This document shows, one piece after another, positions 11,496 through 52,481 of a stretch of DNA of 64,000 bases. Both the position numbers and the translations under genes were made by a program. Source of the DNA: Candidatus Kaiserbacteria bacterium (GTDB lineage Bacteria; Patescibacteriota; Minisyncoccia; Phycocordibacterales; Phycocordibacteraceae); contig DAIDIW010000002.1 in NCBI GenBank assembly GCA_027451665.1, forward strand, positions 48,251-112,250. The letters run 5' to 3'. Positions within the stretch are counted from its first letter, which is position 1; each line of letters opens with the position of its first letter. The notes beneath the pieces were generated by a model. It had not been told where the DNA came from. It saw only the letters and a list, made by a program, of their open reading frames with translations, and did no database searches.

Positions 11496-11609
11496 AGGAG
11501 TTAGTAAGGTTATTTAAGTATCGGCTTTCATAGTACTACGTTTCCCGGCCCTCTTTCCTTCAGGAAAGAGGGAGCCCGTAGATCCGCATGATCGGATCTA
11601 CGGGCTTGT

Positions 11610-11975: not shown

Positions 11976-12006
11976 GGACGGCGCGGGAAGGGAACCCAGG
12001 TTCCGG

Positions 12007-14327: not shown

Positions 14328-16001
14328 ATGACGCAGGCGGAAGCGCTTTCCATACTGAAGACCGGCGCGAACGTCTTCCTCACGGGAGAGCCGGGGAGCG
14401 GGAAAACGCACACTGTAAACGCGTTCATCACCTGGCTGCGCTCCTGCGGCATCGAGCCGTCCGTGACTGCCGCGACCGGCATCGCCGCTACGCACGTCTC
14501 GGGCATGACGCTCCATTCCTGGAGCGGTATCGGCATCCAGGACGCGCTCTCGCCCGCGGATATCGATCGCATCGCGTCCCACGAATCGGTGGCGCGCCGC
14601 ATAACGAAGGCAAAGTTGCTCATCATCGACGAGATATCGATGCTCTCTGCGTCTACGTTCGAGGCCGCGGATGCGGTCTGTCGGGAGGTCCGGCGCGATA
14701 CACGTCCGTTCGGCGGCCTCACACTCATCCTCGTCGGAGACTTCTTCCAGCTGCCGCCCGTATCGCGAGGCGCGGACGCCGCATTCGCGTTCACTTCGGA
14801 GACCTGGCGCGCCCTCAATCCGATCACGTGCTACCTCACCGAACAGTACCGCCAGGATGACGACGTGTTCCTCTCGGTGCTCTCCGCGATACGCGAAGGC
14901 TGCGTCGAAGAGCTCCAGTACGAAGTGCTCATGCGGCGGCAGGTGACGGACGGACCGCCCGCAGATGCACCGAGGTTGTTCTCCCATAATGCTGACGTGG
15001 ACCGTCTGAATGCCGAGGCACTCGCGGCGCTGCCAGGCGCTTCCCGGAAATTCCTCATGAGATCGAGCGGGAAGGAGACGCTCGTCGAAGCCCTGAAGCG
15101 CGGATGCCTGTCGCCGGAAGTGCTCGAGGTGAAGGAGGGCGCGCGCGCGATGTTCACGAAGAACTCGCCGCAAGGGAAGTTCGTCAACGGCACTCTCGGC
15201 ACTGTCGTCGGGTTTGCGCCGGGGAGCGCGCTTCCGATCGTTGAGACGTCGACGGGACGCACGGTTGAAGCTGAACCTATGGAGTGGCAGATCGAAGAGA
15301 ACGGAAAAGTGCGGGCCACGGTGACGCAGGTGCCGCTTCGGCTCGCGTACGCGATGACCGTTCATAAAAGCCAGGGACTCTCGATGGATGCGGCCGTCAT
15401 TGACCTATCGCGCGCCTTCGAGTACGGGCAAGGGTATGTCGCCCTCAGCCGCGTCAGACGTCTCGACGGGCTTCACCTGCTCGGCATGAATCAGCGCGCG
15501 CTCGAAGTGCACCCGCAGATCCGCGAGCAGGATTTTTCCTTCCGGCAAGCGTCAGAAACCGCTGCGGAGACATTCGCGGCGCTGCCGCGCGCAGAGCTCG
15601 AAGGGCTTCAGAAGCAGTTCGTGAAGGCGTTCGGTGGCGCCTGGCCCAAGGAGGGTTTCGCGACGCCGGCGTCTAAAGGCCGCATCCGCATGGACGGCGG
15701 CTTGCCTGGGCGGCTCGCGGAAACCTTGCAGACCGTGCGCGACACGAAGGATCTGAAAGAGGCCGCACGAGCGCGCGGCCTCGCGGTCTCGACCATTCTG
15801 CGCCACCTCGAAGAGCTTAACGAGCTCGGTCAGCTCGCGCGCGCGGACTTCGAGCACTTGTTCACTGATCGCCGCGGGCTTCACGAAATCCGTGAAGCGT
15901 TCCGGCAGGAACCGGGCGATACGCTCTCCCCGGTATTCCACGCCCTAGGCGGGAAGTACTCCTTTGAGACCATCCGTCTTGCGCGCTTGCTGAGATCCTG
16001 A
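14328..16001 (+). CDS. PIF1/RecD-family ATP-dependent DNA helicase
   Basis: Walker A 'GEPGSGKT', 'LIIDEISM' and 'GDFFQLPPV' PIF1 signature, plus a C-terminal HTH-like tail. Confidence 0.8.
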   Translation: MTQAEALSILKTGANVFLTGEPGSGKTHTVNAFITWLRSCGIEPSVTAATGIAATHVSGMTLHSWSGIGIQDALSPADIDRIASHESVARRITKAKLLIIDEISMLSASTFEAADAVCREVRRDTRPFGGLTLILVGDFFQLPPVSRGADAAFAFTSETWRALNPITCYLTEQYRQDDDVFLSVLSAIREGCVEELQYEVLMRRQVTDGPPADAPRLFSHNADVDRLNAEALAALPGASRKFLMRSSGKETLVEALKRGCLSPEVLEVKEGARAMFTKNSPQGKFVNGTLGTVVGFAPGSALPIVETSTGRTVEAEPMEWQIEENGKVRATVTQVPLRLAYAMTVHKSQGLSMDAAVIDLSRAFEYGQGYVALSRVRRLDGLHLLGMNQRALEVHPQIREQDFSFRQASETAAETFAALPRAELEGLQKQFVKAFGGAWPKEGFATPASKGRIRMDGGLPGRLAETLQTVRDTKDLKEAARARGLAVSTILRHLEELNELGQLARADFEHLFTDRRGLHEIREAFRQEPGDTLSPVFHALGGKYSFETIRLARLLRS

Positions 16002-18395: not shown

Positions 18396-18410
18396 GATTC
18401 CCTGAAGCGA

Positions 18411-18839
18411 TTAGCGGCGCGCGCGTGCGAAATGGAAGCTCGAGTACGACAGATACGCCGCGACGAATACGCCAACCCACGAGAGCCAGAGCGGGATCGC
18501 AAAGCCGCCAAGTATGAGATTCCAGCCGAACATGAGGCGGCAGAGATGCACGAGAGCCACGATAAGGAAGATGAGTCCGGCGAGATTGAGGAGCGTGCGC
18601 TCGGACGGGGAAGAGATGGGGAGCTTCATGTTCCAGCCGAAATGTATGAGCAGGAGCAGCAGCGCACCATCAAAGACAACGATCTCAGGGATTGCCTGGC
18701 TGGTCCAGGTGACGCCGAGGAGCGTCATGGGCAAAAGTCCGGTGGCCGAGAGCCAGAGCGCGCTGATAAGGTCTGCGAGCACGAGACCAGAACCTACTTT
18801 CGCGATCTCACGGAGCGTTCGATGATTCATAGATGGCAT
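18411..18839 (-). CDS. small membrane protein, 16 nt upstream of and co-oriented with the P-type ATPase
   Basis: Four hydrophobic helices and no motif. Confidence 0.35.
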   Translation of the reverse strand: MPSMNHRTLREIAKVGSGLVLADLISALWLSATGLLPMTLLGVTWTSQAIPEIVVFDGALLLLLIHFGWNMKLPISSPSERTLLNLAGLIFLIVALVHLCRLMFGWNLILGGFAIPLWLSWVGVFVAAYLSYSSFHFARARR

Positions 18840-18908
18840 GCTGAGCGGATATGCCTTCAGTATGACGTACTCATTGACGCAGGAAAGCAGTGAACGTGCA
18901 TAACTTTG

Positions 18909-20876
18909 CTACGGCGCGGGATTGCAGTCGTCGCAGATGCCGAGCCGTTCGAGCGCGTCGAGGTAATCGAGCGTCGTGTTCACGAACGCGGCATGGCTCC
19001 ACGCCAGCGGTGCGACCGAACGCTGCGTGCGTGTGTCGAAGTCGAGCTGTTCCGAGAGAACGCCGGAATCCTGTGCATGCGCAGCCACCCAGGCGAGAAT
19101 GGCACGGGCTGGTTCGAGATCGGCATCCTCTTTCGCGCGCGCGATGAGAAATTGCGCGTGCCAGAGGGTCGCGATGAACCAGGGATTCCCGCGCCCTCCG
19201 CTCCGGAAATACTGATCGCCTTCGTAGCGCATGAGGCCGCCAGCTGCTGTGAGACGCTGCGTGGTCGCGGTGAACGCATCGACGAGCCGCGGATCGTCCG
19301 GCGCGAGTACGCCGAACGCGAAGAGCCCGTATACGCTCGAGATATCAGGCGTCCGATCATAGACGGTCTTCTCCTCGAACGTCTCGATGAGCTTCACGAA
19401 TCCGCCTGCTTCTTCGGAAGCGAAATGCGCAAGGATCGCCTCGCGTATCTCTCGCGCAGCGCGTTCGTACTCCTGCGCGCGGTCTTCTTTCCCAAGCACG
19501 CGCGCGATCTCCGCAGTCGCCGTGAGCGCGCCGAACACCGCCGCAGAGGTGAAGGTGGAGATGCCGTGTTTCTCCTCCCAGAGATCGTAGGAGGCGTGGG
19601 GCAGCCCGGTCGCCGCGTCGCGGTAGCGCACCATGAAATCCGCCGCCTTTGCGATGAGCGGGTTATAAAGCTTCTCGATGAATTCGAGATCCTTGCTGTG
19701 CCGGTACTGTTCCGTGATCGTCCATACGACGAGCGCGGTCTCGTCCTCCTGGATCGGCAGCTGGAGTTCGCCGTCGCGAATCCAGGGATGCCACGAAGAG
19801 CCGAGCGAACGGTCCGGAAGATACTTGTGCATGAAATAGCCTTCGTCCGAGATGACTTTCTCGCAGAACGCAAAGAACCGCTCGGCGACGTTCGGATCGC
19901 CCGCGCGCAAGAGCGCGCGAGCCGCGAAGCTCGCGTCGCGCGGCCAGACGTAGGCGTAGGTGTCCTCATTGTATTGGAGCGTCTCCGCGTCTGCGCTCGC
20001 GATGATGCCGCCATCATCGTCGGCGTGCGCACGCACGAACATGAGCGACCTGCGGAAGAGGGCGGCAACCGCCGGTGAAAGGCCATGGAAATCCCAGTCG
20101 TACCGATGCACCCATGCCTTCCAGTAATCGCTCGTGGTCGTGAGGAGGTGCGTGGGGCTCTTGGCGAGCACGTAGGCATTGAGGGCTGTGGCTTCAGGGA
20201 TGCCTTCGGCGGCGGTGAGCCAATAGTGGACGGTGCCCGACGAGTCAGGCGCGAGCGCAAGGGTGAATCCCATGACCGAATCGACGGACCCGTGCTCGAC
20301 GGCGTTCTTCGAGAGCACCCCGTCTTCCGCATCGCGGAAGGTGCCATCCTTGCCGGCGATGCCGAATAAGCCGACGGCATACTCGTCGAATGGTGTCTCA
20401 CCCGCGCGACCGTTCGCGAGGAAGGCGCGGGCGCCCTTGTAGTGGATGAGGGAATGGCTCGCGGGGTCGAAGTAGGCGGTGTCGCCTCCCGGCGAATGGC
20501 TGATCTCGAACTCGTGACCGAGGAAGAGTTTCACCGTGCGCGGCTCATCGCGAAGATTGCGGATCTCGATCTTACGCACGAGTATAGGACGTTCATTGTA
20601 GACGACATCGGTAAACGATAGGCGTAGCCCGAGCGCCTCGTGTTCGGCGGTGATGCGGCTCTCGAGGGAATCCTCAGCACTGCCGACGCGCACGCGCCAG
20701 CGGGTATCTTCCGAGAGCCAGGAACAGCTTCCGTCGGCGTAGATGCCGATGCGGTGCCGCATCGCGCCGCCCGCATGATTCTCGAGTCCGACGTGAGGAA
20801 AATAAAGGTCGCGCACCTCGCCTCGGTCATCGAGCGTCACGAGGAGCGAACCGTTGCCGAGGATGAGCGATCTCAT
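18909..20876 (-). CDS. glycoside hydrolase family 15 (glucoamylase/glucodextranase-like)
   Basis: N-terminal beta domain, then an (alpha/alpha)6-type region with the 'LWEEKHG' general-acid motif. Confidence 0.7.
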   Translation of the reverse strand: MRSLILGNGSLLVTLDDRGEVRDLYFPHVGLENHAGGAMRHRIGIYADGSCSWLSEDTRWRVRVGSAEDSLESRITAEHEALGLRLSFTDVVYNERPILVRKIEIRNLRDEPRTVKLFLGHEFEISHSPGGDTAYFDPASHSLIHYKGARAFLANGRAGETPFDEYAVGLFGIAGKDGTFRDAEDGVLSKNAVEHGSVDSVMGFTLALAPDSSGTVHYWLTAAEGIPEATALNAYVLAKSPTHLLTTTSDYWKAWVHRYDWDFHGLSPAVAALFRRSLMFVRAHADDDGGIIASADAETLQYNEDTYAYVWPRDASFAARALLRAGDPNVAERFFAFCEKVISDEGYFMHKYLPDRSLGSSWHPWIRDGELQLPIQEDETALVVWTITEQYRHSKDLEFIEKLYNPLIAKAADFMVRYRDAATGLPHASYDLWEEKHGISTFTSAAVFGALTATAEIARVLGKEDRAQEYERAAREIREAILAHFASEEAGGFVKLIETFEEKTVYDRTPDISSVYGLFAFGVLAPDDPRLVDAFTATTQRLTAAGGLMRYEGDQYFRSGGRGNPWFIATLWHAQFLIARAKEDADLEPARAILAWVAAHAQDSGVLSEQLDFDTRTQRSVAPLAWSHAAFVNTTLDYLDALERLGICDDCNPAP

Positions 20877-20879
20877 GAG

Positions 20880-22157
20880 CTATACGCCGACTCCGACGGC
20901 CGCTTCGCGGGACGGCTGCGTACGCGCGGCGGTCGCGGATCCATGCGGGGACGTTTGCACGGAGGATTCGTTCACGCGCAGGCGCCACTCGAGATCCTTG
21001 AGCACATGCATGTAGATCTTATAGGCCTCATAGGGCGATCCATAGGGGGAGAAGTACGCATGTACGTCGCCGTCCGCAGACCACTTCGTGCACAGATAAT
21101 AGAAATGATCAGACGTCTGAAGCCGTCGCCAATCCTCGAGGAGCGACGCGTCCGAGGCCGCATGCACGCGCGCCTCGAGGCCGTAGAGCGTCCCGATCGC
21201 TGCTTGTTGCAGTTCGTTCCCGAGCCAGGCGGTGAGATCACGGTCGGTGTCGGCCCAGGTAGTCACGTGCGGTACGTCGATGACGCCGCGGTCTGGAAGT
21301 GCGGCGATAGCGCCGGATGGCGTCATGAACGTGATTTGCGGGTTCTTGAGCAGTTCGCCCGGAAGCGCCGAGAGGAAATCGAAGATTCCGGTATCTTCCC
21401 ATTGATGCTCGCCGAACGTTTCGTAATCCATAAAGAGATTCATGGTCTCGCCGTCGGCTGCGGAGAGCCACTGGCCAAATTTCTCCGTCGTAAGCGGCCA
21501 CTCGTTCCAGTCGCGCGAGGAGAAGCGGAAGGCGACATCATCTGAAAGCTTGTAGTTTTTGAGTAGGAGTTTCGTGCGGCGCGCGTTCATCGGGCGATAC
21601 ACATGATTCGGACTTCGTCCGCCGAGTACCGGATCCCACCCCTCGGCGAGAATGCCGAGATAACCGTGTTCGTCGGCCCACGCGCCGAGTGCGTTCGTAT
21701 ACGATAGTTCCGTATTGCGGAAGACGCGCGGCGACTGCTCGAAAAGCCGTTCGATCGTCTCGGCATGCATGCGTACTTGGCGCTCGAATTCGGGGCGCGA
21801 GTAGAAGAAAGAAAGCGAATGGTAGTACGTCTCGCCGAGGAATTCGACGCGCCTGCTCTTCGCGAACAAACGGAAGAGATCGATAACGTCCGGGGCATCG
21901 CGCTCGAGCTGCTCGAGCGCGATGCCCGAGATGGAAAGCGAGAATCGGAATTGCGGATAGCGCTCAAGCAGCGCGAGCAGACGCTGAGCGGTAGGCAGGT
22001 ATGACTTCGCTGCTACTTTTTGTAAGACGCGAGCATTATTCAGGTCGTTCTCTTCATCGCCGCCGAAATATGCGTGGTCGTGTCCGATATCGAAAAGGCC
22101 GTACCGCTTCACGCGGTAGGGCTGGTGCACTTGCAGGTAGATGCAGACGTTCTTCAT
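20880..22157 (-). CDS. glycoside hydrolase family 57 (alpha-amylase/4-alpha-glucanotransferase-like)
   Basis: 'YLQVHQPYR' GH57 N-terminal signature. It lies 3 nt from GH15 and overlaps GT4 by 4 nt. Confidence 0.7.
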   Translation of the reverse strand: MKNVCIYLQVHQPYRVKRYGLFDIGHDHAYFGGDEENDLNNARVLQKVAAKSYLPTAQRLLALLERYPQFRFSLSISGIALEQLERDAPDVIDLFRLFAKSRRVEFLGETYYHSLSFFYSRPEFERQVRMHAETIERLFEQSPRVFRNTELSYTNALGAWADEHGYLGILAEGWDPVLGGRSPNHVYRPMNARRTKLLLKNYKLSDDVAFRFSSRDWNEWPLTTEKFGQWLSAADGETMNLFMDYETFGEHQWEDTGIFDFLSALPGELLKNPQITFMTPSGAIAALPDRGVIDVPHVTTWADTDRDLTAWLGNELQQAAIGTLYGLEARVHAASDASLLEDWRRLQTSDHFYYLCTKWSADGDVHAYFSPYGSPYEAYKIYMHVLKDLEWRLRVNESSVQTSPHGSATAARTQPSREAAVGVGV

Positions 22158-34726: not shown

Positions 34727-34876
34727 GCGGTCGCCTTTCTCGTTGAATGGATTCCACGATGCAGTTCAGTCGTTCGCAGTCGGTACGCGCAAGGGCGATC
34801 GGGGGATGCGAGGATTTTGCCTCTGGACGTGCGGTATCATGCAGGCATAGGGTGCCGACTGGAGCCCGTTCTGTTC

Positions 34877-35758
34877 ATGAATCGCTACCTCTTCCTTATC
34901 ATCCTTGGGATCATGGCCTCGATTGCGCTCTTCGCGCTCTCGCTTGGGGGCAGCCATATCGTGCTGTTCTCTCCGCAGGGTTATATCGCGAAGCGCGAAG
35001 TCGCGCTCATGGCGCTCGCACTTCGGCTCATGCTTATCATTGTGATTCCGGTGTTCGCGCTCACTTTCGCCATCGCCTGGCACTATCGCGCGGGGAACGC
35101 TAAGGCACGCTACCTTCCAAACTGGGAGCATAACCGGCTGGAAGAAGCGATCTGGTGGGCAGTGCCGTTCCTCATCATTATCGCGCTCGCGAGCATCACC
35201 TGGACTTCCTCGCACGCGCTCGATTCGTACAAGGGGATCGCAACGTCGACGCCGGCGCTCGAAATTGATGTCGTTGCGCTCGATTGGAAATGGCTGTTCA
35301 TCTATCCCGCACAAAGGATCGCCACCGTGAACACGCTTACAATCCCGACGGGCACGCCGATTGCCTTCAAACTCACTGCGGATGCGCCCATGAATGCGCT
35401 TTGGATACCGCAGCTCTCGGGGCAGGAGATGGCGATGCCCGGCATGGTGACCGAGCTTCATATCGAGGCTGACGCGCCCGGAGCGTACCACGGGCTCTCT
35501 GGCAATTACAGCGGCGCCGGGTTCGCCGGGATGCAGTTCACCGCGCATGCGGTATCGAAGTCTGCTTTCGGCGCTTGGGTCGCCGAGACGCGTATGTCCA
35601 CCTCGACGCTTGATCGCGTAACGTATGCGTCGCTCGCCGCGCCGAGCGAGAATGTCGCGCCCGAGCGCTACGTGCTCGGTGATCCGGGCTTGTATACTTG
35701 GATCGTGATGAAATACATGACGCCGCCGGCCGCCTCGTCGACGCCGGCCTCCGGATGA
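34877..35758 (+). CDS. cyoA: quinol oxidase subunit II (CyoA/QoxA-like; no obvious CuA ligands)
   Basis: Two N-terminal TM helices, then a cupredoxin-like domain. It is adjacent to cyoB. Confidence 0.7.
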   Translation: MNRYLFLIILGIMASIALFALSLGGSHIVLFSPQGYIAKREVALMALALRLMLIIVIPVFALTFAIAWHYRAGNAKARYLPNWEHNRLEEAIWWAVPFLIIIALASITWTSSHALDSYKGIATSTPALEIDVVALDWKWLFIYPAQRIATVNTLTIPTGTPIAFKLTADAPMNALWIPQLSGQEMAMPGMVTELHIEADAPGAYHGLSGNYSGAGFAGMQFTAHAVSKSAFGAWVAETRMSTSTLDRVTYASLAAPSENVAPERYVLGDPGLYTWIVMKYMTPPAASSTPASG

Positions 35759-35760
35759 CT

Positions 35761-37716
35761 ATGCTTGGAAGACTCACGTTTGCCGCCCTCGAGCAGGGCC
35801 CCATCGTCTTCGCCGCACAGATGCTCGTGCTTTTCGGCGCGCTCGGTGTTGCTGCGCTCATTACCTATCTGAAACGCTGGAAGTGGCTCTGGAACGAGTA
35901 TCTCACATCGCTCGATGCGAAGAAGATCGGCATCATGTATCTCGTCGTTGCGGCCGTAATGCTCGTCCGCGGCGGCATCGACGCGCTTATGATGCGCGCA
36001 CAGCAGGCGGTCGCGGTGGGGAATAATGCCGGCTACCTACCGCCGGAGCACTTCGCGCAGGTATTCACCGGGCACGGCGTCATCATGATTTTCTTCGTTG
36101 CGATGCCGCTCATGTTTGGCATCATGAACGTGATCCTGCCAGTCATGCTCGGGACGCGCGATGTCGCGTACCCGTTCCTGAACTCGGTCTCGTTCTATCT
36201 CTTTACCGCGGGTGCGGCGCTTGTGATGGCTTCGCTTGTGATAGGGCAGTTCGCGACGACCGGATGGACTGCCTACCCGCCGCTCTCAGAGCTCGCCTAT
36301 AGTCCGGGCGTCGGCGTCGACTACTACATCTGGGCGCTCCAGATCTCGGGCATCGGGACCCTTCTCGCCGGCATCAATTTTATAGTGACGATCCTTAAGA
36401 AGCGTGCGCCCGGCATGTCTCTCATGAAGATGCCGATGTATGCCTGGACGGTGCTCGGAAGCATGATGCTTGTCGTCACTGCGTTTCCGGTGCTTACGGC
36501 TACGCTCGGATTGCTCACCCTCGATCGCTATCTCGGCATGCATTTTTTCACGGCGGGCGGCGGCGGCAATATGATGATGTACGTGAACCTGTTCTGGGCG
36601 TGGGGCCACCCTGAGGTCTATATCCTCGTACTTCCGGCGTTCGGCGTCTTCAGCGAGGTCGTTGCAACGTTCTCTGGGAAGCGGCTCTTCGGCTATACCT
36701 CCATGGTGATCGCAACGATGGCGATTACGATTCTTTCGTGGCTCGTCTGGCTACATCATTTCTTCACCATGGGCGCGGGCGCGGATGTGAACGCCTTCTT
36801 CGGCATTATGACGATGATCATTGCCATTCCGACGGGCGTGAAGATCTTCAACTGGCTCTTTACCATGTATCGTGGCCGCGTACGCTTCACGACGCCGATG
36901 CGCTGGTTCCTCGGATTCGTCGCGCTCTTTACGATTGGCGGCATGGCGGGCGTGCTTATGGCAGTGCCGCCGGCAGATTTCGAGCTCCACGAAAGCCTGT
37001 TCCTTGTCGCGCACTTCCACACGATGATCGTCTCCGGCGTTCTTTTCGGCGATTTTGCGGCGCTCGCGTACTGGTTCCCGAAAGTGTTCGGATTCACGCT
37101 CTCGGAAAAGTGGGGGATACGCGCGTTCTGGGCCTGGACGGTGGGGTTCATGCTCGCCTTCATCCCGCTTTATGTGCTCGGCTTCATGGGCGCCACGCGC
37201 CGGCTTGATCACTATCCGGCCGGGCTCGGATGGAATCCGCTCTTCATCGTCGCTGGCGTTGGTGCGCTTGTAATCGCTTCGGGCGTCGTATGCCAGGCGA
37301 TTCAACTCTATGTGAGCATTCGCGACCGTCGGAAGAATCGAGACTTGACCGGAGATCCGTGGGACGGACGGACGCTCGAGTGGTCGACTCCCTCTCCCGT
37401 CCCGTTCTATAACTTCGCAAGGACGCCAATAGTCGCTATCCGTGATCCGTTCTGGGCGGTGAAGTACGGTCTGGCGCCTCAGACGCCGGAGAACGACTAT
37501 CTTTCCATCGAGCTGCCGCGCGGGAGCGGTCTTGGGCTCGTCATTGGCGGAGCCGCCTTCGCCTTCGCCTTCGCGATGGTCTGGCATATCTGGTGGCTCG
37601 TGATGCTCGGCGCGCTCGTGATGCTCGGCGCGCTCTTTGTGCGCTTCCTCGACGAGGATACCGAGTCAATCATCTCTGCCGATACTCTGCGCCGCTTTGA
37701 TACCGCTACCGTATGA
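35761..37716 (+). CDS. cyoB: quinol oxidase subunit I (heme-copper oxidase catalytic subunit)
   Basis: 'WAWGHPEVYILVLP' CuB/His region and 'HFHTMIVSG' conserved HCO motifs. Confidence 0.9.
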   Translation: MLGRLTFAALEQGPIVFAAQMLVLFGALGVAALITYLKRWKWLWNEYLTSLDAKKIGIMYLVVAAVMLVRGGIDALMMRAQQAVAVGNNAGYLPPEHFAQVFTGHGVIMIFFVAMPLMFGIMNVILPVMLGTRDVAYPFLNSVSFYLFTAGAALVMASLVIGQFATTGWTAYPPLSELAYSPGVGVDYYIWALQISGIGTLLAGINFIVTILKKRAPGMSLMKMPMYAWTVLGSMMLVVTAFPVLTATLGLLTLDRYLGMHFFTAGGGGNMMMYVNLFWAWGHPEVYILVLPAFGVFSEVVATFSGKRLFGYTSMVIATMAITILSWLVWLHHFFTMGAGADVNAFFGIMTMIIAIPTGVKIFNWLFTMYRGRVRFTTPMRWFLGFVALFTIGGMAGVLMAVPPADFELHESLFLVAHFHTMIVSGVLFGDFAALAYWFPKVFGFTLSEKWGIRAFWAWTVGFMLAFIPLYVLGFMGATRRLDHYPAGLGWNPLFIVAGVGALVIASGVVCQAIQLYVSIRDRRKNRDLTGDPWDGRTLEWSTPSPVPFYNFARTPIVAIRDPFWAVKYGLAPQTPENDYLSIELPRGSGLGLVIGGAAFAFAFAMVWHIWWLVMLGALVMLGALFVRFLDEDTESIISADTLRRFDTATV

Positions 37717-38327
37717 CGCGCGATCTCCTCGTACCGTCCGTTCAGGTCACCGTGCCGCCGTTCACGGAACGTCGCGAGATAACGCTGCTCGGTTTCTGGA
37801 TCTATCTCCTCTCGGATGCCATCATCTTCGCCTGTCTGTTTGCAACCTATGCCGTCCTGCACGTCAACACATTCGGCGGCCCTGGGGCCCGCGATCTCTT
37901 CTCGCTGCCCTATGTGCTTCTAGAGACCTTCGTGCTTCTCGTCTCAAGCTTCACGGCTGGGCTCGGGGCGCTTGCCGCCTATCGCGGCAATGCGCGACAG
38001 GTACTCGGCTGGTTCTCCGTGACGCTCCTCCTCGGGCTCGCATTCCTCTCCCTTGAGGCGCACGAATTCGTCGGCCTTGTCGCGGGAGGACACGGACCCG
38101 CGCAAAGCGGATTCCTCTCTTCCTACTTCACGCTCGTCGGAACGCACGGGCTTCACGTCGCCCTCGGATCATTCTGGATGCTCTTTATGCTCATCGCTGT
38201 CTACCTTCGGGGGCTTACGGAAACGAACGTGCGCCGTCTCACGATGCTCTCGCTGTTCTGGCATTTCCTCGATGTGATATGGATCTTCATCTTTACCATC
38301 GTGTATCTGCTCCCCTTCATTAAGTGA
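37713..38327 (+). CDS. cyoC: quinol oxidase subunit III
   Basis: Five TM segments and a 'WHFLDVIW' subunit III motif. It overlaps cyoB by 4 nt. Confidence 0.85.
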   Translation: MTRDLLVPSVQVTVPPFTERREITLLGFWIYLLSDAIIFACLFATYAVLHVNTFGGPGARDLFSLPYVLLETFVLLVSSFTAGLGALAAYRGNARQVLGWFSVTLLLGLAFLSLEAHEFVGLVAGGHGPAQSGFLSSYFTLVGTHGLHVALGSFWMLFMLIAVYLRGLTETNVRRLTMLSLFWHFLDVIWIFIFTIVYLLPFIK

Positions 38328-38677
38328 ATATGGATTCTTACCGCGGCACATTTGGGACCTATATCGCCGGCTTCGTCGGTTCGCTCGTGTGTACGTGTGC
38401 CGCATACTATCTTGTGGTCGTGCATCCGGCTGCGCCCGCGCTCATTCTCGCAGCGGTAATCGCGCTCGCAACGTTCCAGTTTGGTGTGCAGCTCGTACTG
38501 TTTCTTCACTTGGGACGCAGTGCGAAGGTCTGGAATGTCGTCGCCTTTGCCTTCGCGTTCATCATTGTATGCATCGTGGTCGCCGGGTCGCTTTGGATCA
38601 TGCAGAACCTGAGCGGCCGGATGATGCCGTCGCAGGCGCAGATGATGCAATATATGAACAATCAGGATTCTCTGTGA
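38324..38677 (+). CDS. cyoD: quinol oxidase subunit IV
   Basis: Small three-TM protein overlapping cyoC by 4 nt. Confidence 0.65.
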   Translation: MNMDSYRGTFGTYIAGFVGSLVCTCAAYYLVVVHPAAPALILAAVIALATFQFGVQLVLFLHLGRSAKVWNVVAFAFAFIIVCIVVAGSLWIMQNLSGRMMPSQAQMMQYMNNQDSL

Positions 38678-38679
38678 GT

Positions 38680-39531
38680 ATGCCTCGGGACTATTACGCG
38701 CTCCTGAAGCCGGGCATCATCTACGGAAACGCGATCACCGCGGCAGGCGGCTTCATGCTTGCGGCAGGCGGGCATCCCGATTGGCTGCTCCTGCTCGCAA
38801 CTCTCGTGGGACTCTCGCTCGTCATCGGCAGCGGCTGCGTCTTCAATAATTGCGTCGATCGCGATATTGATGCGCTCATGCAGCGGACACAATCGCGGCC
38901 GCTCGTGCGTGGCACAATCACGTTCCGCGCCGCGTTCGTATATGGGGCGGTCGTTGGCCTCGCCGGATTTGCCATCCTGCTTACATTCACCAACATTCGT
39001 GCGACTCTCGTCGCGCTGTTCGGATTTGTCGCATATGTATTCGTCTACAGCCTCTGGGCGAAGCGGCGCACCGTATACGGAACGCATCTCGGCGCGCTTT
39101 CAGGCGCGGTACCGCCGGTCGTTGGATATGTGGCGGTGGCGAACCGTCTCGATCTCGCCGCGCTCATCCTGTTCCTTATACTATTTTTTTGGCAGATGCC
39201 GCATTTCTTCGCGATTGCGATTCGTCGTGAGGAGGACTATCGTGGAGCGCGTATTCCGGCGCTCCCTCTCGTGCGGAGCGCACAAGAAACCCGTCTACAG
39301 ATACGGCTCTATATCTTTGCGTTCCTCTTTGCGGCGCTCTCGCTCTGGTATGCGGGATTCGCGAGCGCGACCTATGCGGTTGCTGCGTGCCTACTCGGTC
39401 TTTTCTGGCTCATGAGTTCGCTGTTGCCGGCAACGAATGAACGCGTGTGGGCTGCGCGCATATTTTCCTTTTCGCTCATTGTGCTCACGCTCCTCTCGGT
39501 CGCGTGGATGCTCTCACCAATCACCCCTTGA
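38680..39531 (+). CDS. cyoE: protoheme IX farnesyltransferase (heme O synthase); start trimmed to 'MPRDYYALLKPG'
   Basis: UbiA-family motifs 'NCVDRDIDALMQRT' and 'YSLWAKRRT'. Confidence 0.85.
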   Translation: MPRDYYALLKPGIIYGNAITAAGGFMLAAGGHPDWLLLLATLVGLSLVIGSGCVFNNCVDRDIDALMQRTQSRPLVRGTITFRAAFVYGAVVGLAGFAILLTFTNIRATLVALFGFVAYVFVYSLWAKRRTVYGTHLGALSGAVPPVVGYVAVANRLDLAALILFLILFFWQMPHFFAIAIRREEDYRGARIPALPLVRSAQETRLQIRLYIFAFLFAALSLWYAGFASATYAVAACLLGLFWLMSSLLPATNERVWAARIFSFSLIVLTLLSVAWMLSPITP

Positions 39532-44680: not shown

Positions 44681-44749
44681 GGCATGAGACGAGCTTTTTA
44701 CGGCTTACTTTTTACAATCTACTAGGCCGTAGACAGCTCGTCTCATGCC
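44681..44749 (+). promoter_or_regulatory. long imperfect hairpin (15-bp perfect outer stem plus 6-bp inner stem) whose right arm contains the ATG at 44745
   Basis: GGCATGAGACGAGCT (44681-95) pairs with AGCTCGTCTCATGCC (44735-49), and TACGGC (44699-704) pairs with GCCGTA (44726-31). The left arm starts a 13-codon mini-ORF, MRRAFYGLLFTIY. Confidence 0.45.
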
Positions 44750-44801
44750 GAGACAGCCGTTCTCTCGCAGCGCAATGCGGGTTCACCTATGGAGGCATCC
44801 G

Positions 44802-45620
44802 ATGCCAGACATCGCACCCCTCAGTCTTGCCAGCAACGCACTCGACACCTTCGCCAAGTGGGCGCGGGTCATGGAGAGGGCGGGCGTCACGTACGACCAG
44901 CTCGTGCTGCCAATCAACAGCCGGACGGCGCGCCGGAACCTCGCCGAATACCTGAAGGCGGGCTGCCCGAAGCTGGGAAACGCAACCGCAACAGCCGATC
45001 CCGCACCGCTCACCGGCTACGACCTCGCCTCGATCATCCTCGGGAAGGATTTCATTCGTCCCGACGAGGTCGCGGCGAACCGCCCCGGCGTCGTATACAG
45101 CGACGAGCAGTTCGAATCGTTCGAGAACATGCTGCCCGGCCGCGAGGAACTCGAAGAGCTTCGCGACGATGGCTATATGCTCGTCCCTGGTCCCGCGCAA
45201 CCGATGGCGCTCCTCGACATCCGCAGCCTCAAACCCGGCTACTTCTACACGAAAACGGGCGGCTGGTATGCGGAGGAGAAGCAGCGCTTCTCGCGCGAAG
45301 ATCGCGCCCCGACGAAGTGGCTCAAGCTCCGCAAGGGGCCGGTGCCGAACTCGACGGGCAAGAACTGGGACGAACAAAGCCCGCTCCTCTCGGCCGTCGA
45401 GCACGTCCCGAACGACGCCGAAGTCGAATGGGCCGTGACGACGTACAAGGCCGTCCGGGGCATCTACCTGCTCCCGAACGTCTACGTGCGCACGTCCAGT
45501 CGCACCGCTGGCGGCAGTCGCGTCGACGTGGGCCGCTTCGACGCCGAGGGTCTCGACGTCAACGACGTCTGGGGCGACGGCCGCTTCTCTTACTTGGGCC
45601 TGGCGTCTGCTCGGGAGTGA
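44802..45620 (+). CDS. hypothetical protein (start 44802 'MPDIAPL', or the ATG at 44745 inside the hairpin)
   Basis: No motif recognised. Hairpins followed by T-tracts at about 45640-45720 look like terminators. Confidence 0.35.
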   Translation: MPDIAPLSLASNALDTFAKWARVMERAGVTYDQLVLPINSRTARRNLAEYLKAGCPKLGNATATADPAPLTGYDLASIILGKDFIRPDEVAANRPGVVYSDEQFESFENMLPGREELEELRDDGYMLVPGPAQPMALLDIRSLKPGYFYTKTGGWYAEEKQRFSREDRAPTKWLKLRKGPVPNSTGKNWDEQSPLLSAVEHVPNDAEVEWAVTTYKAVRGIYLLPNVYVRTSSRTAGGSRVDVGRFDAEGLDVNDVWGDGRFSYLGLASARE

Positions 45621-45969
45621 ATCTCGAAGCCTTGAGGGCTTGTCCCTCTTGATCTCTTGACTCCTTGAGCCCTCTCGTTTTTTGCGGATACAACTGCAAA
45701 AGCGCGAGGGCTTTTTCTTTGGTCACTTTTTGGGCAACCCGTGGGCAACCGCGGGCATTACCAACCAACGCAACGCGGACAAAAAGTGGCCAGAGAAAAC
45801 GTTACACCCTCCCAACTTGGGAAGGGTGTTTCGCTTTGACTGCTTCAGAGGCAGAACAGTCCGGGAGCCTTTTGAGGACTGCGTAACGTTCACGATGCGC
45901 ACTTGTTCATCACCTCCTGTATGCGATCTGATTGGTGGGAATCCTGACCATTTGGGATATAATCAACAC

Positions 45970-46317
45970 GTGTCCGATATAAAGAAACTAACTAAGGACT
46001 TGGTCAAATTTCGAGATGCGCGGGATTGGAAACAATTCCACAACCCCAAGGACTGCGCCATCTCTCTGTCGCTCGAGGCCGCAGAGGTACTCGAGCATTT
46101 TCAATGGAAGGATACGAAAGAAGTAGAGCAATACCTAAAGACAAACAAGGCTGATATTGGCGAGGAACTCGCAGACGTTTTGTACTGGGTACTGCTCATC
46201 TCTCACGACCTAAAAATTGACCTCGCGCGGGCATTCGAGAAAAAGATGGAAAAGAACAGTGCCAAGTATCCCGTTGCGAAGGCGAAAGGGAAGCATACCA
46301 AATACACTGAACTATGA
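45970..46317 (+). CDS. MazG-like all-alpha nucleotide pyrophosphohydrolase (YpjD-like); GTG start 6 nt after a TATAAT box
   Basis: 'LSLEAAEVLEHFQWK...IGEELADVLYWVLLISH' with the paired EExxE/D metal-binding helices of the MazG family. TATAAT at 45958-63. The stop overlaps the next start (ATGA). Confidence 0.55.
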   Translation: MSDIKKLTKDLVKFRDARDWKQFHNPKDCAISLSLEAAEVLEHFQWKDTKEVEQYLKTNKADIGEELADVLYWVLLISHDLKIDLARAFEKKMEKNSAKYPVAKAKGKHTKYTEL

Positions 46318-47162
46318 GATTGTTCTCGGGCTCGTCAACAGAGTTTATTAGCGACGCGATACATAACCAGATTGCTGACAAACTCAAAAACGCATTCTTC
46401 CAGTACTACCGATACAATCCCTCGCCCGGCGAGATCCGCTCTTGGCAGAACTCCTTACGAGCCCTGTCGCAGGTTTTTACATACTCGAATCTCGACGACA
46501 ACGGGGTGATTCTTGAATACCAGCTCCCGCTAACCTCGAAGCGGCTTGATTGCCTCATTACGGGTCACGACGAGGAGAGATCAAATGCAGTCATAATCGA
46601 ACTCAAACAATGGGAGAAGTGTGAAATGTCCGAAAGCGAAAATGAGGTCCTCACTTGGGTCGGTGGAGCAAAGCGCGAGGTGTTACACCCCTCCGTTCAA
46701 GTCGGTCGCTATCAAATGTACCTAAAGGATACGCATACAGCTTTTAATATCGATAACCCGGTACAGCTCGAAGCGTGCTCTTATCTACACAACTACACTC
46801 CGCACCCCCACGACGAGATATATTCAACGAAATTCCAGAATTTGCTCGAAACCTTCCCGGTCTTTACGGCTGACGACGTAGATCCCTTCCGGGAGTACCT
46901 AACTTCCAAACTCTCTCGAGGCGGCGGGATGGAGATTTTGGATCGTATCGAAAAAAGCGAGTACAAGCCGAGCAAACAACTCATGGATCACGTGAGCAAG
47001 ATTATCCGCGAACGAAGCGAGTACATTCTGCTCGATGAGCAACTCATTGTGTATGACAAGGTACTCTCCATTGTAAAAAAAGGACTGGATAGCCAGAAGA
47101 AGACGGTCGTTATTGTCCGTGGAGGTCCAGGGACAGGGAAATCCGTGATAGCTATAAACTGA
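46314..47162 (+). pseudogene. N-terminal 282 codons of a PD-(D/E)xK-like plus P-loop NTPase (DUF2075/Schlafen-like ATPase architecture), cut off immediately after Walker A by an IS3 insertion
   Basis: Putative nuclease motif 'RLDCLITGHDEE...IIELKQW' and Walker A 'VIVRGGPGTGKSVIA'. The stop TGA at 47160-62 is the first triplet of the IS left inverted repeat. Confidence 0.55.
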
Positions 47163-47227
47163 CCCGTACCCCAAATTTTGCACACCCTCTTGGGAGGATT
47201 AACCTGTGCGCATAACCCTCCCGCCAT

Positions 47228-47482
47228 ATGAAGCAGCGACGCATCGCTCCAGAACTCAAGGAGCAGATACTTGGGCGCATTAAGAACGACGGCGTCTCCG
47301 TCTCGCAGGCGGCCGCCGATCACGGCGTGAACCCCACCACCATATATGAGTGGCTCAAGGCAGGCATCGAAAGCGGTCCCTCATACGCAGAACGCTCCCG
47401 CCTGAAGAGGGAGAACCTCGACTTGAAGCTCCTCGTGGGCGAGATGACGCTCCGCCTCTCCGAGGCCCAAAAAAAGAGGTGA
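47228..47482 (+). CDS. IS3-family transposase OrfA (HTH)
   Basis: 'SVSQAAADHGVNPTTIYEWLK' HTH and a leucine-zipper-like C-terminus. A slippery A AAA AAG heptamer at 47470-47476 is followed by the stop. Confidence 0.8.
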   Translation: MKQRRIAPELKEQILGRIKNDGVSVSQAAADHGVNPTTIYEWLKAGIESGPSYAERSRLKRENLDLKLLVGEMTLRLSEAQKKR

Positions 47483-48294
47483 GGAGCGCATACCGTGCGA
47501 ACACCGCGCTCCTCGCGCGGCAGCTCGGCGTGTCTCGCCGGAGCCTGTACCACCGCCCCCGCATGGAAGCGAAGGATTGGGCGCTCAAGGTGCGGATCGA
47601 AGAAGCGCTCAGAGAATTCCCCGCATACGGGCACCGCCGCTTGGCGCTTCACCTTCGCGCCAACAAGAAGCGGGTGCGCCGCGTGATGAAGAAGTTCGGC
47701 ATCAAGCCGTATCGAAGGAGGGTACGGCACTGGAAGAAACCGAGGAAACTGCTCGGTATCTATCCGAACCTCCTCATGACCATGCGGCCGTCCTTCCCGC
47801 ACCACGCCTGGGCGGCAGACTTCACGCATATCCTCTGGCGGGAACACGACATCCGCATGGCGACCGTGGTGGACATCTTCACGCGCAGGATCGTGGGCCT
47901 CGCGATTGGGACCCGCGGCGGCACCGCCCTCGTGACCGCCGCGCTCTGCAACGCGCTCCTGGCACATCCCCGCCCTGTCCTCTTCCACAGCGACAATGGG
48001 GTTGAGTATGACGCATGTTCCTTCCGGAGACTTCTCGATTCGCTTGACATCCGCATCTCACGGAGCAAGAAGGGCTGTCCCTGGGAGAACGGGTACCAGG
48101 AGAGCTTCTATGACAAGTTCAAGATCGACCTCGGGGATCCGAACCGCTTCGAGACGCTCGGCGAACTCACCGCAGAACTCTATGCGGCCGTGCATGCATA
48201 CAACACCCGCCGCATACATTCCACGCTTCGCATGCCGCCACAAGAATTCGCAGCAAGGCACGCACGTGCTACGCTATTAGCAATCCCAAGTTAG
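47350..48294 (+). CDS. IS3-family transposase OrfB (DDE integrase core), expressed as OrfAB by -1 frameshifting at 47470-47476
   Basis: After the frameshift the reading continues 'KKEVRSAYRANTALLARQ'. DDE motifs 'HSDNGVEY' and 'CPWENGYQES' are present. Confidence 0.8.
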   Translation: MAQGRHRKRSLIRRTLPPEEGEPRLEAPRGRDDAPPLRGPKKEVRSAYRANTALLARQLGVSRRSLYHRPRMEAKDWALKVRIEEALREFPAYGHRRLALHLRANKKRVRRVMKKFGIKPYRRRVRHWKKPRKLLGIYPNLLMTMRPSFPHHAWAADFTHILWREHDIRMATVVDIFTRRIVGLAIGTRGGTALVTAALCNALLAHPRPVLFHSDNGVEYDACSFRRLLDSLDIRISRSKKGCPWENGYQESFYDKFKIDLGDPNRFETLGELTAELYAAVHAYNTRRIHSTLRMPPQEFAARHARATLLAIPS

Positions 48295-48347
48295 TGTGCA
48301 AGAAAAGGGGTGCATTCCAATTACCGCTGGAATGTCCTTTGTTTCCC

Positions 48348-49106
48348 TTACGCATTACTCGCGATAGGACTCGAACCGCGTATATTCTCCAGAAATTGCT
48401 CCCAAGATTCCTGCGAGTTAATGCCAAGGATTTCTTGGTATGCTCGCTCGTTCTCTTGCGGAGTAGATTTTCTTTGAAGAGTTTTATAGAGCAGAAGATA
48501 CTTTTCTTTCCCGAAATTATTGAGGAGGTATTCGGAAAAAAGAGCTGCGAGTGCGTAGTATTGGCGAGCGAGGTCGTCATTGGTTGCAATCCAAGCATCG
48601 TGGCTCGTTAGTAAATCAGGAGAGATGACGAAACGTTCATTTGTGAACGCTTCTTTTACAACATCTGCAAAGTCATTGCCGTACCAGTCGTGTCCGACCA
48701 TACGCTCCGCAAGTCCTTCTTGAAGGAAACCGATTGAAAGGCCAAGGGGAAGCGAGAGAAGGTGGGTATCTTCGTGAGGTCCTATCACTCGGTCTTTTTC
48801 GGTATAGAGCGCATGCACGGCAAAATCATTGTAAATAGATTGAGCGAACCATGGAGTGCCCATTAATTTCTCCTTTGTCTCGGCGTCAGGATAAAGATAG
48901 TAGGAGATTTTCTTATCAACAGATGGAAGTTCAAGAAATGCGACTATCTGCCGGTACGCGCGTTCCTGAACCTCAACGATTTTCTCGATTTCCTTCTCGG
49001 CCAAGGAATTTTTAAAGTAATGAAAGCGATAGTGCGCAGAATCTCGTGCCTCCCACGGGGCATCTTTAAATGCAGTGGTATAGCCGGGTAACTGCTGTTC
49101 GTACAT
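48348..49106 (-). CDS. hypothetical protein with an HExxH motif (possible zincin-like metallopeptidase)
   Basis: 'GPHEDTHLLS' HExxH, AT-rich codon usage. It lies directly downstream of the radical-SAM gene. Confidence 0.35.
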   Translation of the reverse strand: MYEQQLPGYTTAFKDAPWEARDSAHYRFHYFKNSLAEKEIEKIVEVQERAYRQIVAFLELPSVDKKISYYLYPDAETKEKLMGTPWFAQSIYNDFAVHALYTEKDRVIGPHEDTHLLSLPLGLSIGFLQEGLAERMVGHDWYGNDFADVVKEAFTNERFVISPDLLTSHDAWIATNDDLARQYYALAALFSEYLLNNFGKEKYLLLYKTLQRKSTPQENERAYQEILGINSQESWEQFLENIRGSSPIASNA

Positions 49107-49117
49107 GGACCCACTTT

Positions 49118-49160
49118 ACTACAAGAAGAAAACGGCCGCATGTCTGTGACATACGGCCGC
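49118..49160 (-). terminator. rho-independent terminator after the radical-SAM gene
   Basis: Stem CGGCCGCATGTC/GACATACGGCCG with one mismatch, followed on the minus strand by 'uuuucuucuu'. Confidence 0.5.
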
Positions 49161-49175
49161 CAAGTGTGAAAGACC

Positions 49176-50480
49176 TCATGAATGCACGATCCGGAGGAGA
49201 CCCCGATTCATACGGTCAAGAAGCGCTTTTTGACAGAATCGTCGCGCACCGCCTTGCTCGGGTCCGTGTTCGACCATCGCCTCGAACGTGCACCCACCAC
49301 CGCAGACCGGTAGATATGTGCAGCGTTCTTTGATGCAGTCATCGGTTCGTTTCCACTGTTCAAACCGCGGATCCTTCGTATACGTCGTCGGTTTTGCGGC
49401 GACGTTCGCGAAGTTGAACTCAGGTCGACCGCTGGTGCAGAAGCATTTTTGCAGGTTGCCATCCGGCTGTAGAACTGCTGCGTGTTTTGCCACGGCTACA
49501 CAGAGCGGACCGGCGATGAACTCATCCGGAACTTCGAACCCCTTAGCTTTCGCATACTCCCACGTGGAGAGCGCTGCGTCTGCCAGTTGTTCTTGCGTCA
49601 TGCGACCGGGCGTTACCGAAAGCGATGGCGTGGTGAGTCCGAGCGAAAGGCGTATGCGAGAATGCCTCCCGAGCGCATCAAGCTCGTCGATGAGACGGGC
49701 CAAGTGGTTCTTAGTTCCGGTGTCGAGTGTCAGCCGGATGTCGACGGCCGGAATGTAGTCAGTCGACAGCAGCATCCGAACGTTCTTCATGATGTTTGCG
49801 AATGTCGGACGGTTCTTCCGCCCGAAACGCCGCGTGTCATGAATCTCCGCCGGTCCATCCAGCGTAATCTGTACTCGTCGCCAGTTATAGCGGGAGAACA
49901 TCTCGGCTGTTTTTTCGTCGAGTAGTTCACCGTTCGTCGTAATTTCGACCCAGAAGTCGAGACCAAGTTCTCGACAGAGCGATTGGTAGGCTTCAAGAGC
50001 TTGGGCGATAACCCCCTTGCAGAGAAGCGGTTCGCCACCGAAGAACTTGAGACGCAGCGAATCGACCTCTGGATGGAGCCGAACGTATTCTCGGAACCAC
50101 GTGAGCGAGTGTTCCAGGATTTCCGGCCTCATTGGACGGCCCCTGTCAGCGCCATTCTCGAAGCAATACGGACACTCGAACTGGCACTGAATGGTTGGTT
50201 CGAAATGAAGCGTAAACACATGCGCTTCATCGTTCCGGGTCGTGAGCATGAGTTTGTGCCACTCGGCGATTTCGTCGATATCGCCTTCGACGAGGAAGCC
50301 GTTCTCGATGAGGTCGTCAAGACCTTTCGGGACCGGATTCTCGTCTTGTCGGGCGAGCCATTGGTCGAGTTCAAGCTTGGCCTCGTGACTCATCAAGATG
50401 GCCGCTTCGGTGAAGGTGTTCTTGGCGAGCACTCCTCGAGGTAGATTTTCAAAGATCGTGAACGCACTGAGTAACCACAT
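49176..50480 (-). CDS. radical SAM/SPASM-domain peptide-modifying enzyme with a ~95-aa N-terminal RRE-like extension
   Basis: 'CQFECPYC' CxxxCxxC, 'FFGGEPLL', and a C-terminal SPASM cysteine array 'C...CFC...CIKERCTYLPVCGGGC'. AGGAGA Shine-Dalgarno 7 nt upstream. Confidence 0.8.
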   Translation of the reverse strand: MWLLSAFTIFENLPRGVLAKNTFTEAAILMSHEAKLELDQWLARQDENPVPKGLDDLIENGFLVEGDIDEIAEWHKLMLTTRNDEAHVFTLHFEPTIQCQFECPYCFENGADRGRPMRPEILEHSLTWFREYVRLHPEVDSLRLKFFGGEPLLCKGVIAQALEAYQSLCRELGLDFWVEITTNGELLDEKTAEMFSRYNWRRVQITLDGPAEIHDTRRFGRKNRPTFANIMKNVRMLLSTDYIPAVDIRLTLDTGTKNHLARLIDELDALGRHSRIRLSLGLTTPSLSVTPGRMTQEQLADAALSTWEYAKAKGFEVPDEFIAGPLCVAVAKHAAVLQPDGNLQKCFCTSGRPEFNFANVAAKPTTYTKDPRFEQWKRTDDCIKERCTYLPVCGGGCTFEAMVEHGPEQGGARRFCQKALLDRMNRGLLRIVHS

Positions 50481-50564
50481 GGAACATTCTCCTTTTCGGT
50501 TTGCATGAATAGTGCCCGGAGCTAAAAAGCCCCGGGCACTAAGGTGAAGGAGGTAGGCCTGGCT

Positions 50565-50705: not shown

Positions 50706-50779
50706 GGCAAAACCTCTCTATTGAGGAGGACCATTCCTCCACGATACAGAGTGCCACAAAAACGTATGCTTTTCAATAG

Positions 50780-50909
50780 AAAAAGTTCGAGTCCTATCCG
50801 CGAGCGGATGGGACTCGAATTTTTTGACTCATTTCTAAGTCACGATATGTTGCATTTCCTCACTATTTTCTGGACGGGAATGGGTCGGATGCACAGGAAT
50901 CATCTGCTC
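50780..50909. repeat. copy A of a ~130-bp imperfect direct repeat; contains a bidirectional terminator-like hairpin (50780-50826)
   Basis: About 80% identical to 52282-52412. Hairpin GTTCGAGTCCTATCCGC/GCGGATGGGACTCGAA flanked by AAAAA and TTTTTT. Confidence 0.6.
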
Positions 50910-50985
50910 TGGGGATGCGATCCTAACTCTCAAAATATCCTTGCTTTATCTCGCACTCGATGGCGATGGGATTCGAACCTGGATC

Positions 50986-51017
50986 ATAAAAAAGAGCCAC
51001 TGGATTCCCAGCGGCTC
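50986..51017 (-). terminator. rho-independent terminator of purM
   Basis: 10-bp stem GAGCCGCUGG/CCAGUGGCUC (one G-U), loop gaau, then UUUUUU on the minus strand. Confidence 0.6.
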
Positions 51018-51035
51018 TCAAGTCTGTCGACGGTG

Positions 51036-52151
51036 CTATTCGCCCGGAGGCTCGAGCACCATGTCGTTTATCGGTCCAAAGACAGTTTTGCGTTCGCCAT
51101 CTTCGACGCAGCCGACTTCAAGCGCTTCGTAGCCGGCCGTTTTCGCGATGGCCAGAACCCGATCGGCTTCGTTCACTGGAACGAAGACGTAGTAGCCAAC
51201 GCCCCAGTTGAAGGTGGTAATGCAATCCTTGTCCGAGACCCCGAGCTCCCACATGAAGCGGAAGAGCGGCGGCACCTCCGGCCAGGAGTGGATGCGGTAG
51301 GTGTGCGGGCGATGGTCGAAGGCGACCTTCGCGACGCCGCTCCCCGTTCCTGGCAGGAGCGCGTGGATGTCCACCCCGTGATTGAGGAGCGTCTCAACGA
51401 GTCCGACATAACACCGCGTCGGAATAAGCGCCTCATCGCCGAGCGTATTGCCACCCGGCAGTTTAGCGAGGAACTTATCCGGAAGATCCATCGCCCGCTT
51501 GATAACGAGCGATACACCATTGGCGTGCAAGCCGGAGCTCGTAATGCCGATGATGCGATCGCCGGTCGCGAGCTTGCTGCCGTCAATCAGGTTGCTAAGC
51601 GGCGCGATGATGCCTGTGACGCAGCCGCTCAACGATGGCGCACTCTTGACCGGTTCCTGCGCACGAACCAGATATTTGAGCGCAGGAGATTCGCCGGCGA
51701 CGAGTGCCATGCCAGACATCTTGCAGGCCTCGTAAAAGCCCTGCGCGAGGTCTTGAGCACGCTTCACATCTTGGAACCATTCACTGTCTCCGGCGGCGAC
51801 CTCGTCCACATACGCCACGGGCATTGCGCCCTGGGCGATGCAATCGTTCACCGCCATCATTGCGTTGTCGATGCCGATGCCGCGATAGTGCGGGTCGCCG
51901 GTACCGTCGTTCTGCTACATCCACTCGGCGATCCAATTCTTGTTCCCGAGGCCTTCCATGGTATTGCACCAGGCGTGTTTGTAGTTGCCCTCGTAGCGGA
52001 AGATGCCGCCGTGTGAGTGCAGCACGCTGGTGTTGATGAATACCTGTCGTGCTTCGGGGAAGCCGACAGTACGTTTGGCGGTCGCAATCATTGCGTCCTT
52101 GAAGGGCTCGATCTTGGTGTAATCGACTCCAGCCTTCGCATATTCGCTCAT
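51036..52151 (-). pseudogene. purM: phosphoribosylformylglycinamidine cyclo-ligase (AIR synthase) interrupted by an in-frame TAG at 51915-51917
   Basis: The N-terminal ORF 'MSEYAKAGVDYTKI...' and the C-terminal ORF '...GITSSGLHANGVSLV...' are in the same frame, and the 18 codons between them also align to PurM. A single amber codon separates them. Confidence 0.65.
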
Positions 52152-52281
52152 TTTTACTCTCGCTTTCGTTGAGTTTTGGTGGTTTGTGCTGGTCTGTCGG
52201 TCATCCTACAGACGTCTCTCGGGAAGGCAAGCAACGACACAATATCGGGCGGGGGAATTTTGTAATCCGGACTCGGGATAT

Positions 52282-52412
52282 AAAAAGTTCGAGTCCCATC
52301 CAAGGGCGGATAGGACTCGAACTTTCTTGACTCTTCACGAATCTAGAATGTGTTGCGATTGCTCGCTTTTTTCCGGACGGGAATGGGTCGGTTGCACAGA
52401 AATCATCTGCTC
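52282..52412. repeat. copy B of the ~130-bp direct repeat; this copy is the 3' trailer of tRNA-Asn and carries a minus-strand terminator hairpin (52284-52329)
   Basis: Alignment with 50780-50909; the hairpin position has compensatory differences. Confidence 0.6.
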
Positions 52413-52481
52413 CGCGGGTAGGATTCGAACCTACGACCAATCGGTTAACAGCCGACCGCTCTACCACTGAGCTACCGCGGA
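52410..52481 (-). tRNA. tRNA-Asn (anticodon GTT)
   Basis: Folded by hand: acceptor TCCGCGG/CCGCGGA, D-arm GCTC-AGTGGTA-GAGC, anticodon loop CTGTTAA, T-arm GTAGG-TTCGAAT-CCTAC, discriminator G. No encoded CCA. Confidence 0.85.

Follow-up and report, generated by a model that had tools for sequence, protein, structure and literature searches.

The PurM-family (AIR synthetase) gene at positions 51036..52151 (minus strand) of the window, the 64-kb stretch of DNA that was analyzed, is interrupted by an in-frame amber codon at a site where almost all of its orthologues encode tyrosine. The source is an uncultured, ultra-small CPR bacterium of the Paceibacteria type with affinity to Kaiserbacteria and Adlerbacteria MAGs. 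The stop is either an ordinary, very recent knockout or a base-calling error, and a recoding signal is not supported. The explanation that we regard as probable, with moderate confidence, is that an orphan purM acquired a nonsense mutation very recently, within a clade that is losing de novo purine synthesis. According to this explanation, a third-position substitution (TAC or TAT to TAG) at position 51915 would have converted the conserved Tyr79 into an amber stop, translation would end after 78 residues without formation of the two-domain enzyme (a presumed null allele), and the knockout would fit the continuing disappearance of this pathway from the clade. For this case we infer that the population truly carries the TAG and that its members depend on salvaged purines.

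The gene consists of 371 codons and a terminal TAG (51038->51036) and remains in a single frame throughout. Translation of the minus strand yields 78 sense codons, the amber TAG (51917->51915), 292 sense codons, and the terminal TAG. The amber codon is codon 79 (51915..51917, minus strand) and appears as CTA on the plus strand, where base 51915 of the window is a C, so that the third base of the codon is a G when the coding strand is read. The residues around the codon are NKNWIAEWM*QNDGTGDPHYRGIGID. Based on translation and alignments, the stop divides the gene into an N-terminal fragment of 78 codons (51918..52151, minus strand), which carries the EGLGNKNW motif (the counterpart of the PurM DGVGTK motif), and a C-terminal part of 292 codons plus stop (51036..51914, minus strand). 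The original prediction described the TAG at 51915-51917 as an in-frame nonsense codon within purM, not a frameshift, with PurM-like sequence on both sides, and each of these points holds. Minus-strand translation recovers the codon with identical flanking text, and no frameshift was found in purM; on either side of the TAG the alignments to full-length homologues are free of gaps. A search with the 371-residue product, in which the stop was masked, returned 1334 matches at E <= 1e-3, the best of which covers the query in full (100%) at 87% identity (E = 2e-222), and the similarity reflects homology rather than chance. Among solved structures, the top matches are PurM throughout, and PDB entry 9jzy aligns to query residues 3-349 (E = 1.3e-33).

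The assignment of the gene to PurM agrees with its domain content. Pfam identified PF00586 (AIRS) at residues 75-181 and PF02769 (AIRS_C) at residues 196-357, both above the respective cut-offs. The NCBIfam purM model (TIGR00878) was far ahead of all other NCBIfam models (E = 6.9e-49 vs. 1.6e-4 for the next one), and its score of 166.8 bits is below the equivalog cut-off of 236.35, which places the gene in a divergent PurM clade. The clade shares with characterized PurM (TIGR00878; PDB 1CLI, 9JZY) the AIRS plus AIRS_C architecture and an end-to-end structural alignment but differs in an extended N-terminal segment and in the EGLGNKNW motif that replaces DGVGTK. Furthermore, the copy in the window differs from PurM in its premature stop and in the absence of pur neighbors, whereas members of the family in relatives are found within purF/D/N/L/E/K/C/B operons.

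A total of 81 relative loci (59-90% identity) were fetched for the family comparison. The loci belong to Paceibacteria, Kaiserbacteria, Adlerbacteria, and other CPR metagenome-assembled genomes (MAGs), to Berkelbacteria, Woesebacteria, an Aenigmatarchaeota MAG, Aminicenantes, and Acidobacteriota, and to the cultured Faunimonas pinastri. Clustering of the flanking ORFs revealed purL directly upstream of the family member in 51 out of 81 loci, and the other conserved neighbors are purE, purK, purC, purB, purD, purN, purF, and a purH-like gene. In many CPR loci essentially the whole purine pathway is encoded around the family member. This operon context indicates that the clade represents genuine PurM despite the sub-threshold NCBIfam score. 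The PurM identity of the gene in the window is based on the operon context of its relatives, and the ATP-dependent cyclization of FGAM to AIR is its predicted activity. The purM label of the original prediction is thus supported by the operons of the relatives, with the qualification that the TIGR00878 cut-off is not reached and that the clade is divergent. Members of this sub-threshold clade are often labeled “hypothetical” or “AIR synthase-related” and the operon context identifies them as PurM. Sequence identity within the clade amounts to 60-70% even between members from CPR, DPANN, Aminicenantes, Acidobacteriota, and one alphaproteobacterium, a cross-phylum similarity that suggests horizontal spread.

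The sequence KNWIAEWM that precedes the amber codon is present in all 81 loci. The following codon is TAT in 43 loci, TAC in 36, CAC in one, and CGC in one, such that codon 79 encodes tyrosine in 79 out of 81 orthologues, histidine in one, and arginine in one. None of the 81 orthologous loci contains a stop at codon 79, and no JGI metagenome contig matched a degenerate DNA pattern that encodes KNWIAEWM and continues with TAG. The orthologues therefore place a tyrosine codon (TAY), a single base away from TAG, at the site of the stop. The closest relative is an Adlerbacteria MAG (L002; 90% amino acid and 85.7% nucleotide identity), which carries TAC at codon 79 (GAATGGATGTACCAG compared with GAGTGGATGTAGCAG in the window), indicating that a lone third-position change at base 51915 accounts for the stop.

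The expected consequence of the stop is a loss of function. The 78-residue fragment lacks nearly the entire enzyme, and the earliest in-frame start beyond the TAG is an ATG at 51860 (Met98). A restart at Met98 yields a product of 274 amino acids, which is the protein annotated by NCBI (P0006), and this product lacks residues 80-97 and with them the GIGID motif that is conserved throughout the family. As there is no in-frame start before Met98, neither fragment should be able to form the two-domain enzyme and no restart is predicted to rescue the gene, which argues for a null allele. The two polypeptides (residues 1-78 and 98-371) might alternatively assemble into an active split enzyme, given that both reading frames are intact and an ATG is available at codon 98. 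The loss of residues 80-97 with the GIGID motif and the absence of any split arrangement among the 81 loci make such an enzyme extremely improbable. One database protein (P0062, 294 amino acids, start at Met78) resembled a recurrent truncation and was rejected as a gene-calling artifact: the corresponding locus (L001) contains an intact ORF of 372 amino acids with TAT at the site, and the short call is due to an over-extended call of the neighboring gene.

The remainder of the gene displays no sign of decay. A comparison of purM in the window with L002 resulted in a dN/dS ratio of 0.11 (dS 0.49), with values of 0.06 for the part before the stop and 0.13 for the part after it. Besides the stop, the window lineage carries 12 private amino acid changes and L002 carries 11 (with L001 and L004 as outgroups). 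Neither the dN/dS ratios nor the lineage-specific changes relative to L002 reveal a trace of relaxed selection or of secondary lesions in purM. The promoter-like region, the terminator, the reading frame, and the conserved residues are all intact, indicating that the lesion is either very recent or artifactual. The case resembles the point-nonsense pseudogenes of reduced or host-dependent genomes in that a lone premature stop occupies a conserved sense codon, in a pathway that is patchy within the group and that carries other lesions in sister lineages. It differs from these pseudogenes in the lack of secondary decay in purM, as expected if the gene is at the very start of pseudogenization or if the stop is not real.

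Both pseudogenization and a sequencing error were offered as explanations in the original prediction and both remain live. An artifact of sequencing, polishing, or consensus calling, or a minority allele in the MAG consensus, would imply that the true codon is TAC or TAT and that the gene is functional. This explanation is a real but lesser possibility. It would account for a gene that is otherwise perfect (promoter-like element, terminator, dN/dS of 0.11, no excess of changes) by a single base, and an intact gene with one miscalled base would look identical in every test that was run. The closest relatives were assembled in projects that derive MAGs from long reads (MFD isolates), and the source contig measures 286.7 kb, which suggests a similar type of assembly here. 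Furthermore, the TAG site is located 2-3 nt past a GGATG motif; methylation-linked miscalls near GGATG are conceivable, if speculative. However, long-read errors are mostly indels, and no frameshift was observed in about 25 other genes of the window, all of which gave full-length Pfam profile matches without premature stops. A generally error-prone assembly was rejected on the same grounds, with no other broken gene among the approximately 25 that were tested in the window. Stop-creating substitution errors are also rare per gene, and the independent lesions in the same pathway of sister lineages (described below) make a real knockout plausible. Exact-protein look-ups of the 274-amino-acid product, the 78-amino-acid fragment, and the neighboring peroxiredoxin returned no second assembly of the same species, and a search of the JGI metagenome contigs with a species-specific DNA pattern was likewise empty.

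TAG is an ordinary terminator in the window. Based on a gene map derived from GC3, approximately 13 of about 60 predicted genes end in TAG, among them the genes encoding RRF, GH57, GH15, a P-type ATPase, a DsbA-like protein, and the IS3 orfB, as well as purM itself. The TAG at the end of RRF follows a Pfam profile match over positions 1-163 of 164, the GH57, GH15, and P-type ATPase genes likewise reach their TAG at the C-terminus of their homologues, and the terminal TAG of purM (after ...PPGE) is located where the homologues also end. In two regions, genes in the same frame are separated only by a TAG: the GH57, GH15, and P-type ATPase genes (15945-22157), which are separate and complete, and the genes of an RNase-H-like exonuclease and the DsbA-like protein (1116-2429). 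These distinct full-length genes within one frame, together with the C-terminus of purM at a TAG, rule out an alternative genetic code with TAG reassignment. That TAG functions as a true stop at the end of purM and of the IS orfB (47350-48294, rve domains), as stated at the outset, is confirmed.

The use of TAG as a terminator also bears on a tolerated or programmed readthrough of the amber codon, in which a suppressor tRNA encoded elsewhere or a near-cognate tRNA-Tyr or tRNA-Gln would produce enough full-length PurM. The absence of further degeneration is compatible with continued function, and the base immediately after the amber codon is a C. In E. coli, termination at UAG-C is weak, a point in favor of readthrough. 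On the other hand, the stop is present in none of the 81 orthologous loci, the search of the JGI metagenome contigs for KNWIAEWM plus TAG was empty, and many genes in the window, purM among them, end in TAG. Neither ARAGORN nor Rfam identified a suppressor tRNA with a CTA anticodon in the 64-kb window, pyl genes are likewise absent from it, and the 120 nt that follow from the TAG fold no better than shuffled sequences (z = +0.71). In the purM flanks, a search for known RNA elements (riboswitches, sRNAs) produced only sub-threshold chance matches to terminator hairpins. The programmed readthrough that had been listed among the options is consequently not supported: there is no conserved stop, no suppressor tRNA in the window, and no downstream structure, and TAG terminates genes. 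Readthrough of any kind is very unlikely. Even less probable is a useful decoding of the UAG that keeps PurM functional, for instance if another part of the genome encodes a tRNA with a CUA anticodon or if a near-cognate tRNA-Tyr reads the codon efficiently in the weak UAG-C context; if true, it would explain the lack of decay and mean that amber codons are naturally suppressed in a CPR bacterium. The likeness to established UAG recoding systems (pyrrolysine, reassigned lineages, amber suppression) consists of an in-frame UAG inside a conserved ORF and nothing more. Unlike in these systems, the UAG in the window is an ordinary terminator, no orthologue carries the stop, the window contains no suppressor tRNA, and there is no downstream element.

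The tRNA content of the window is limited to a tRNA-Asn and a tRNA-Thr that was called by ARAGORN without support from Rfam. The putative tRNA-Thr(tgt) (77 nt, 45408-45484, minus strand) was rejected as the Rfam tRNA model remained silent even at E <= 1; it is located within a high-GC3 ORF (44745-45620) and is probably a false positive. Two segments beside purM (50906-50927 and 50957-50979) were considered as a potential suppressor tRNA and dismissed, being merely 3′-end fragments that neither Rfam nor ARAGORN recognized as a tRNA. The second of these, a 23-mer resembling a tRNA 3′ end (GGTTCGAATCCCATCGCCATCGA), is an orphan located just after the purM terminator.

The purM gene is part of a compact cassette. 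An intrinsic terminator (a hairpin followed by a T-run; 50992..51019, minus strand) is located just past the purM stop and is kept in L002. The 5′ flank (52152..52237, minus strand), also conserved with L002, contains a leader and, judging from its sequence, a promoter-like element (TTGCCT-16 nt-TAGGAT). DNA homology to L002 is restricted to positions 50988-52237, which corresponds to the unit of promoter, gene, and terminator with the 5′ flank as its upstream end, and the surroundings are wholly different. The upstream neighbor of the cassette is the tRNA-Asn (GTT; 52409..52481, minus strand). Two direct repeats of approximately 150 nt bracket the cassette, and the copies are 76-85% identical. 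The first copy (52278..52430, minus strand) consists of the last 22 nt of the tRNA-Asn, a trailer, and a hairpin, and is joined to the real tRNA-Asn. The second copy (50776..50927, minus strand) is located downstream of purM and consists of a degenerate tRNA-Asn 3′ end, the trailer, and the hairpin. The repeats and the orphan 23-mer look like old att-type scars of integration or rearrangement.

Several features of the surroundings were observed in addition. An IS3 transposase and a stretch of lower GC content are found just beyond the purM cassette, where the region 45600-50500 has a GC content of 0.52-0.54 compared with approximately 0.60 elsewhere. The region contains the IS3-family orfB (47350-48294), two low-GC3 ORFs (45682-47162 and 48348-49106), and a gene for a radical-SAM protein (49176-50480), and it may be an acquired island adjoining the tRNA-Asn. 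In L002, a large serine-recombinase-like ORF (10867-12567) is located immediately downstream of purM, which hints at a mobile element beside the cassette in that genome. A further region of the window (34727-39531) encodes genes of a cyo-type quinol oxidase (COX2 with a COX_ARM motif, COX1, and a UbiA-family protein that is heme O synthase-like) and displays a marked AT skew on the plus strand (-0.23 to -0.27).

A tblastn search identified no other pur genes in the 64-kb window, so that purM is an orphan there. In the sister lineages, purL adjoins purM and is broken. The purL gene of L002 (6048-9714, minus strand) is split by a +1 insertion (aactcTAgagca vs. aactcc-gaaca) in a non-homopolymer context. 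L001 (8561-9904, minus strand) and L003 carry an in-frame internal deletion of approximately 880 amino acids that joins ...RAVGR to HLAMMPHPE..., leaving a purL remnant that consists of the N-domain, the linker, and the extreme C-terminus. Together with the TAG in the window, the insertion in L002 and the deletion in L001 and L003 amount to three different lesions in three lineages that affect a single pathway. Against a knockout stands the strong purifying selection that has acted on purM throughout the clade even though purL genes are broken, which indicates that selection for purM was acting until recently. A purM knockout in the window fits a loss of the pathway, given the orphan state of the gene within 64 kb and the broken adjacent purL in the sisters.

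About a third of 399 CPR MAGs encode the complete de novo purine pathway, which is thus patchy in the CPR (PMC11608272). An event of this type is already known, and the feature is ordinary whether it represents a knockout or a miscall. The purM lesion agrees with the patchy nucleotide biosynthesis and the host dependence known from the Patescibacteria. If the base is real, the window would show a CPR lineage that is losing its de novo purine synthesis one gene at a time, caught at the first mutational step.
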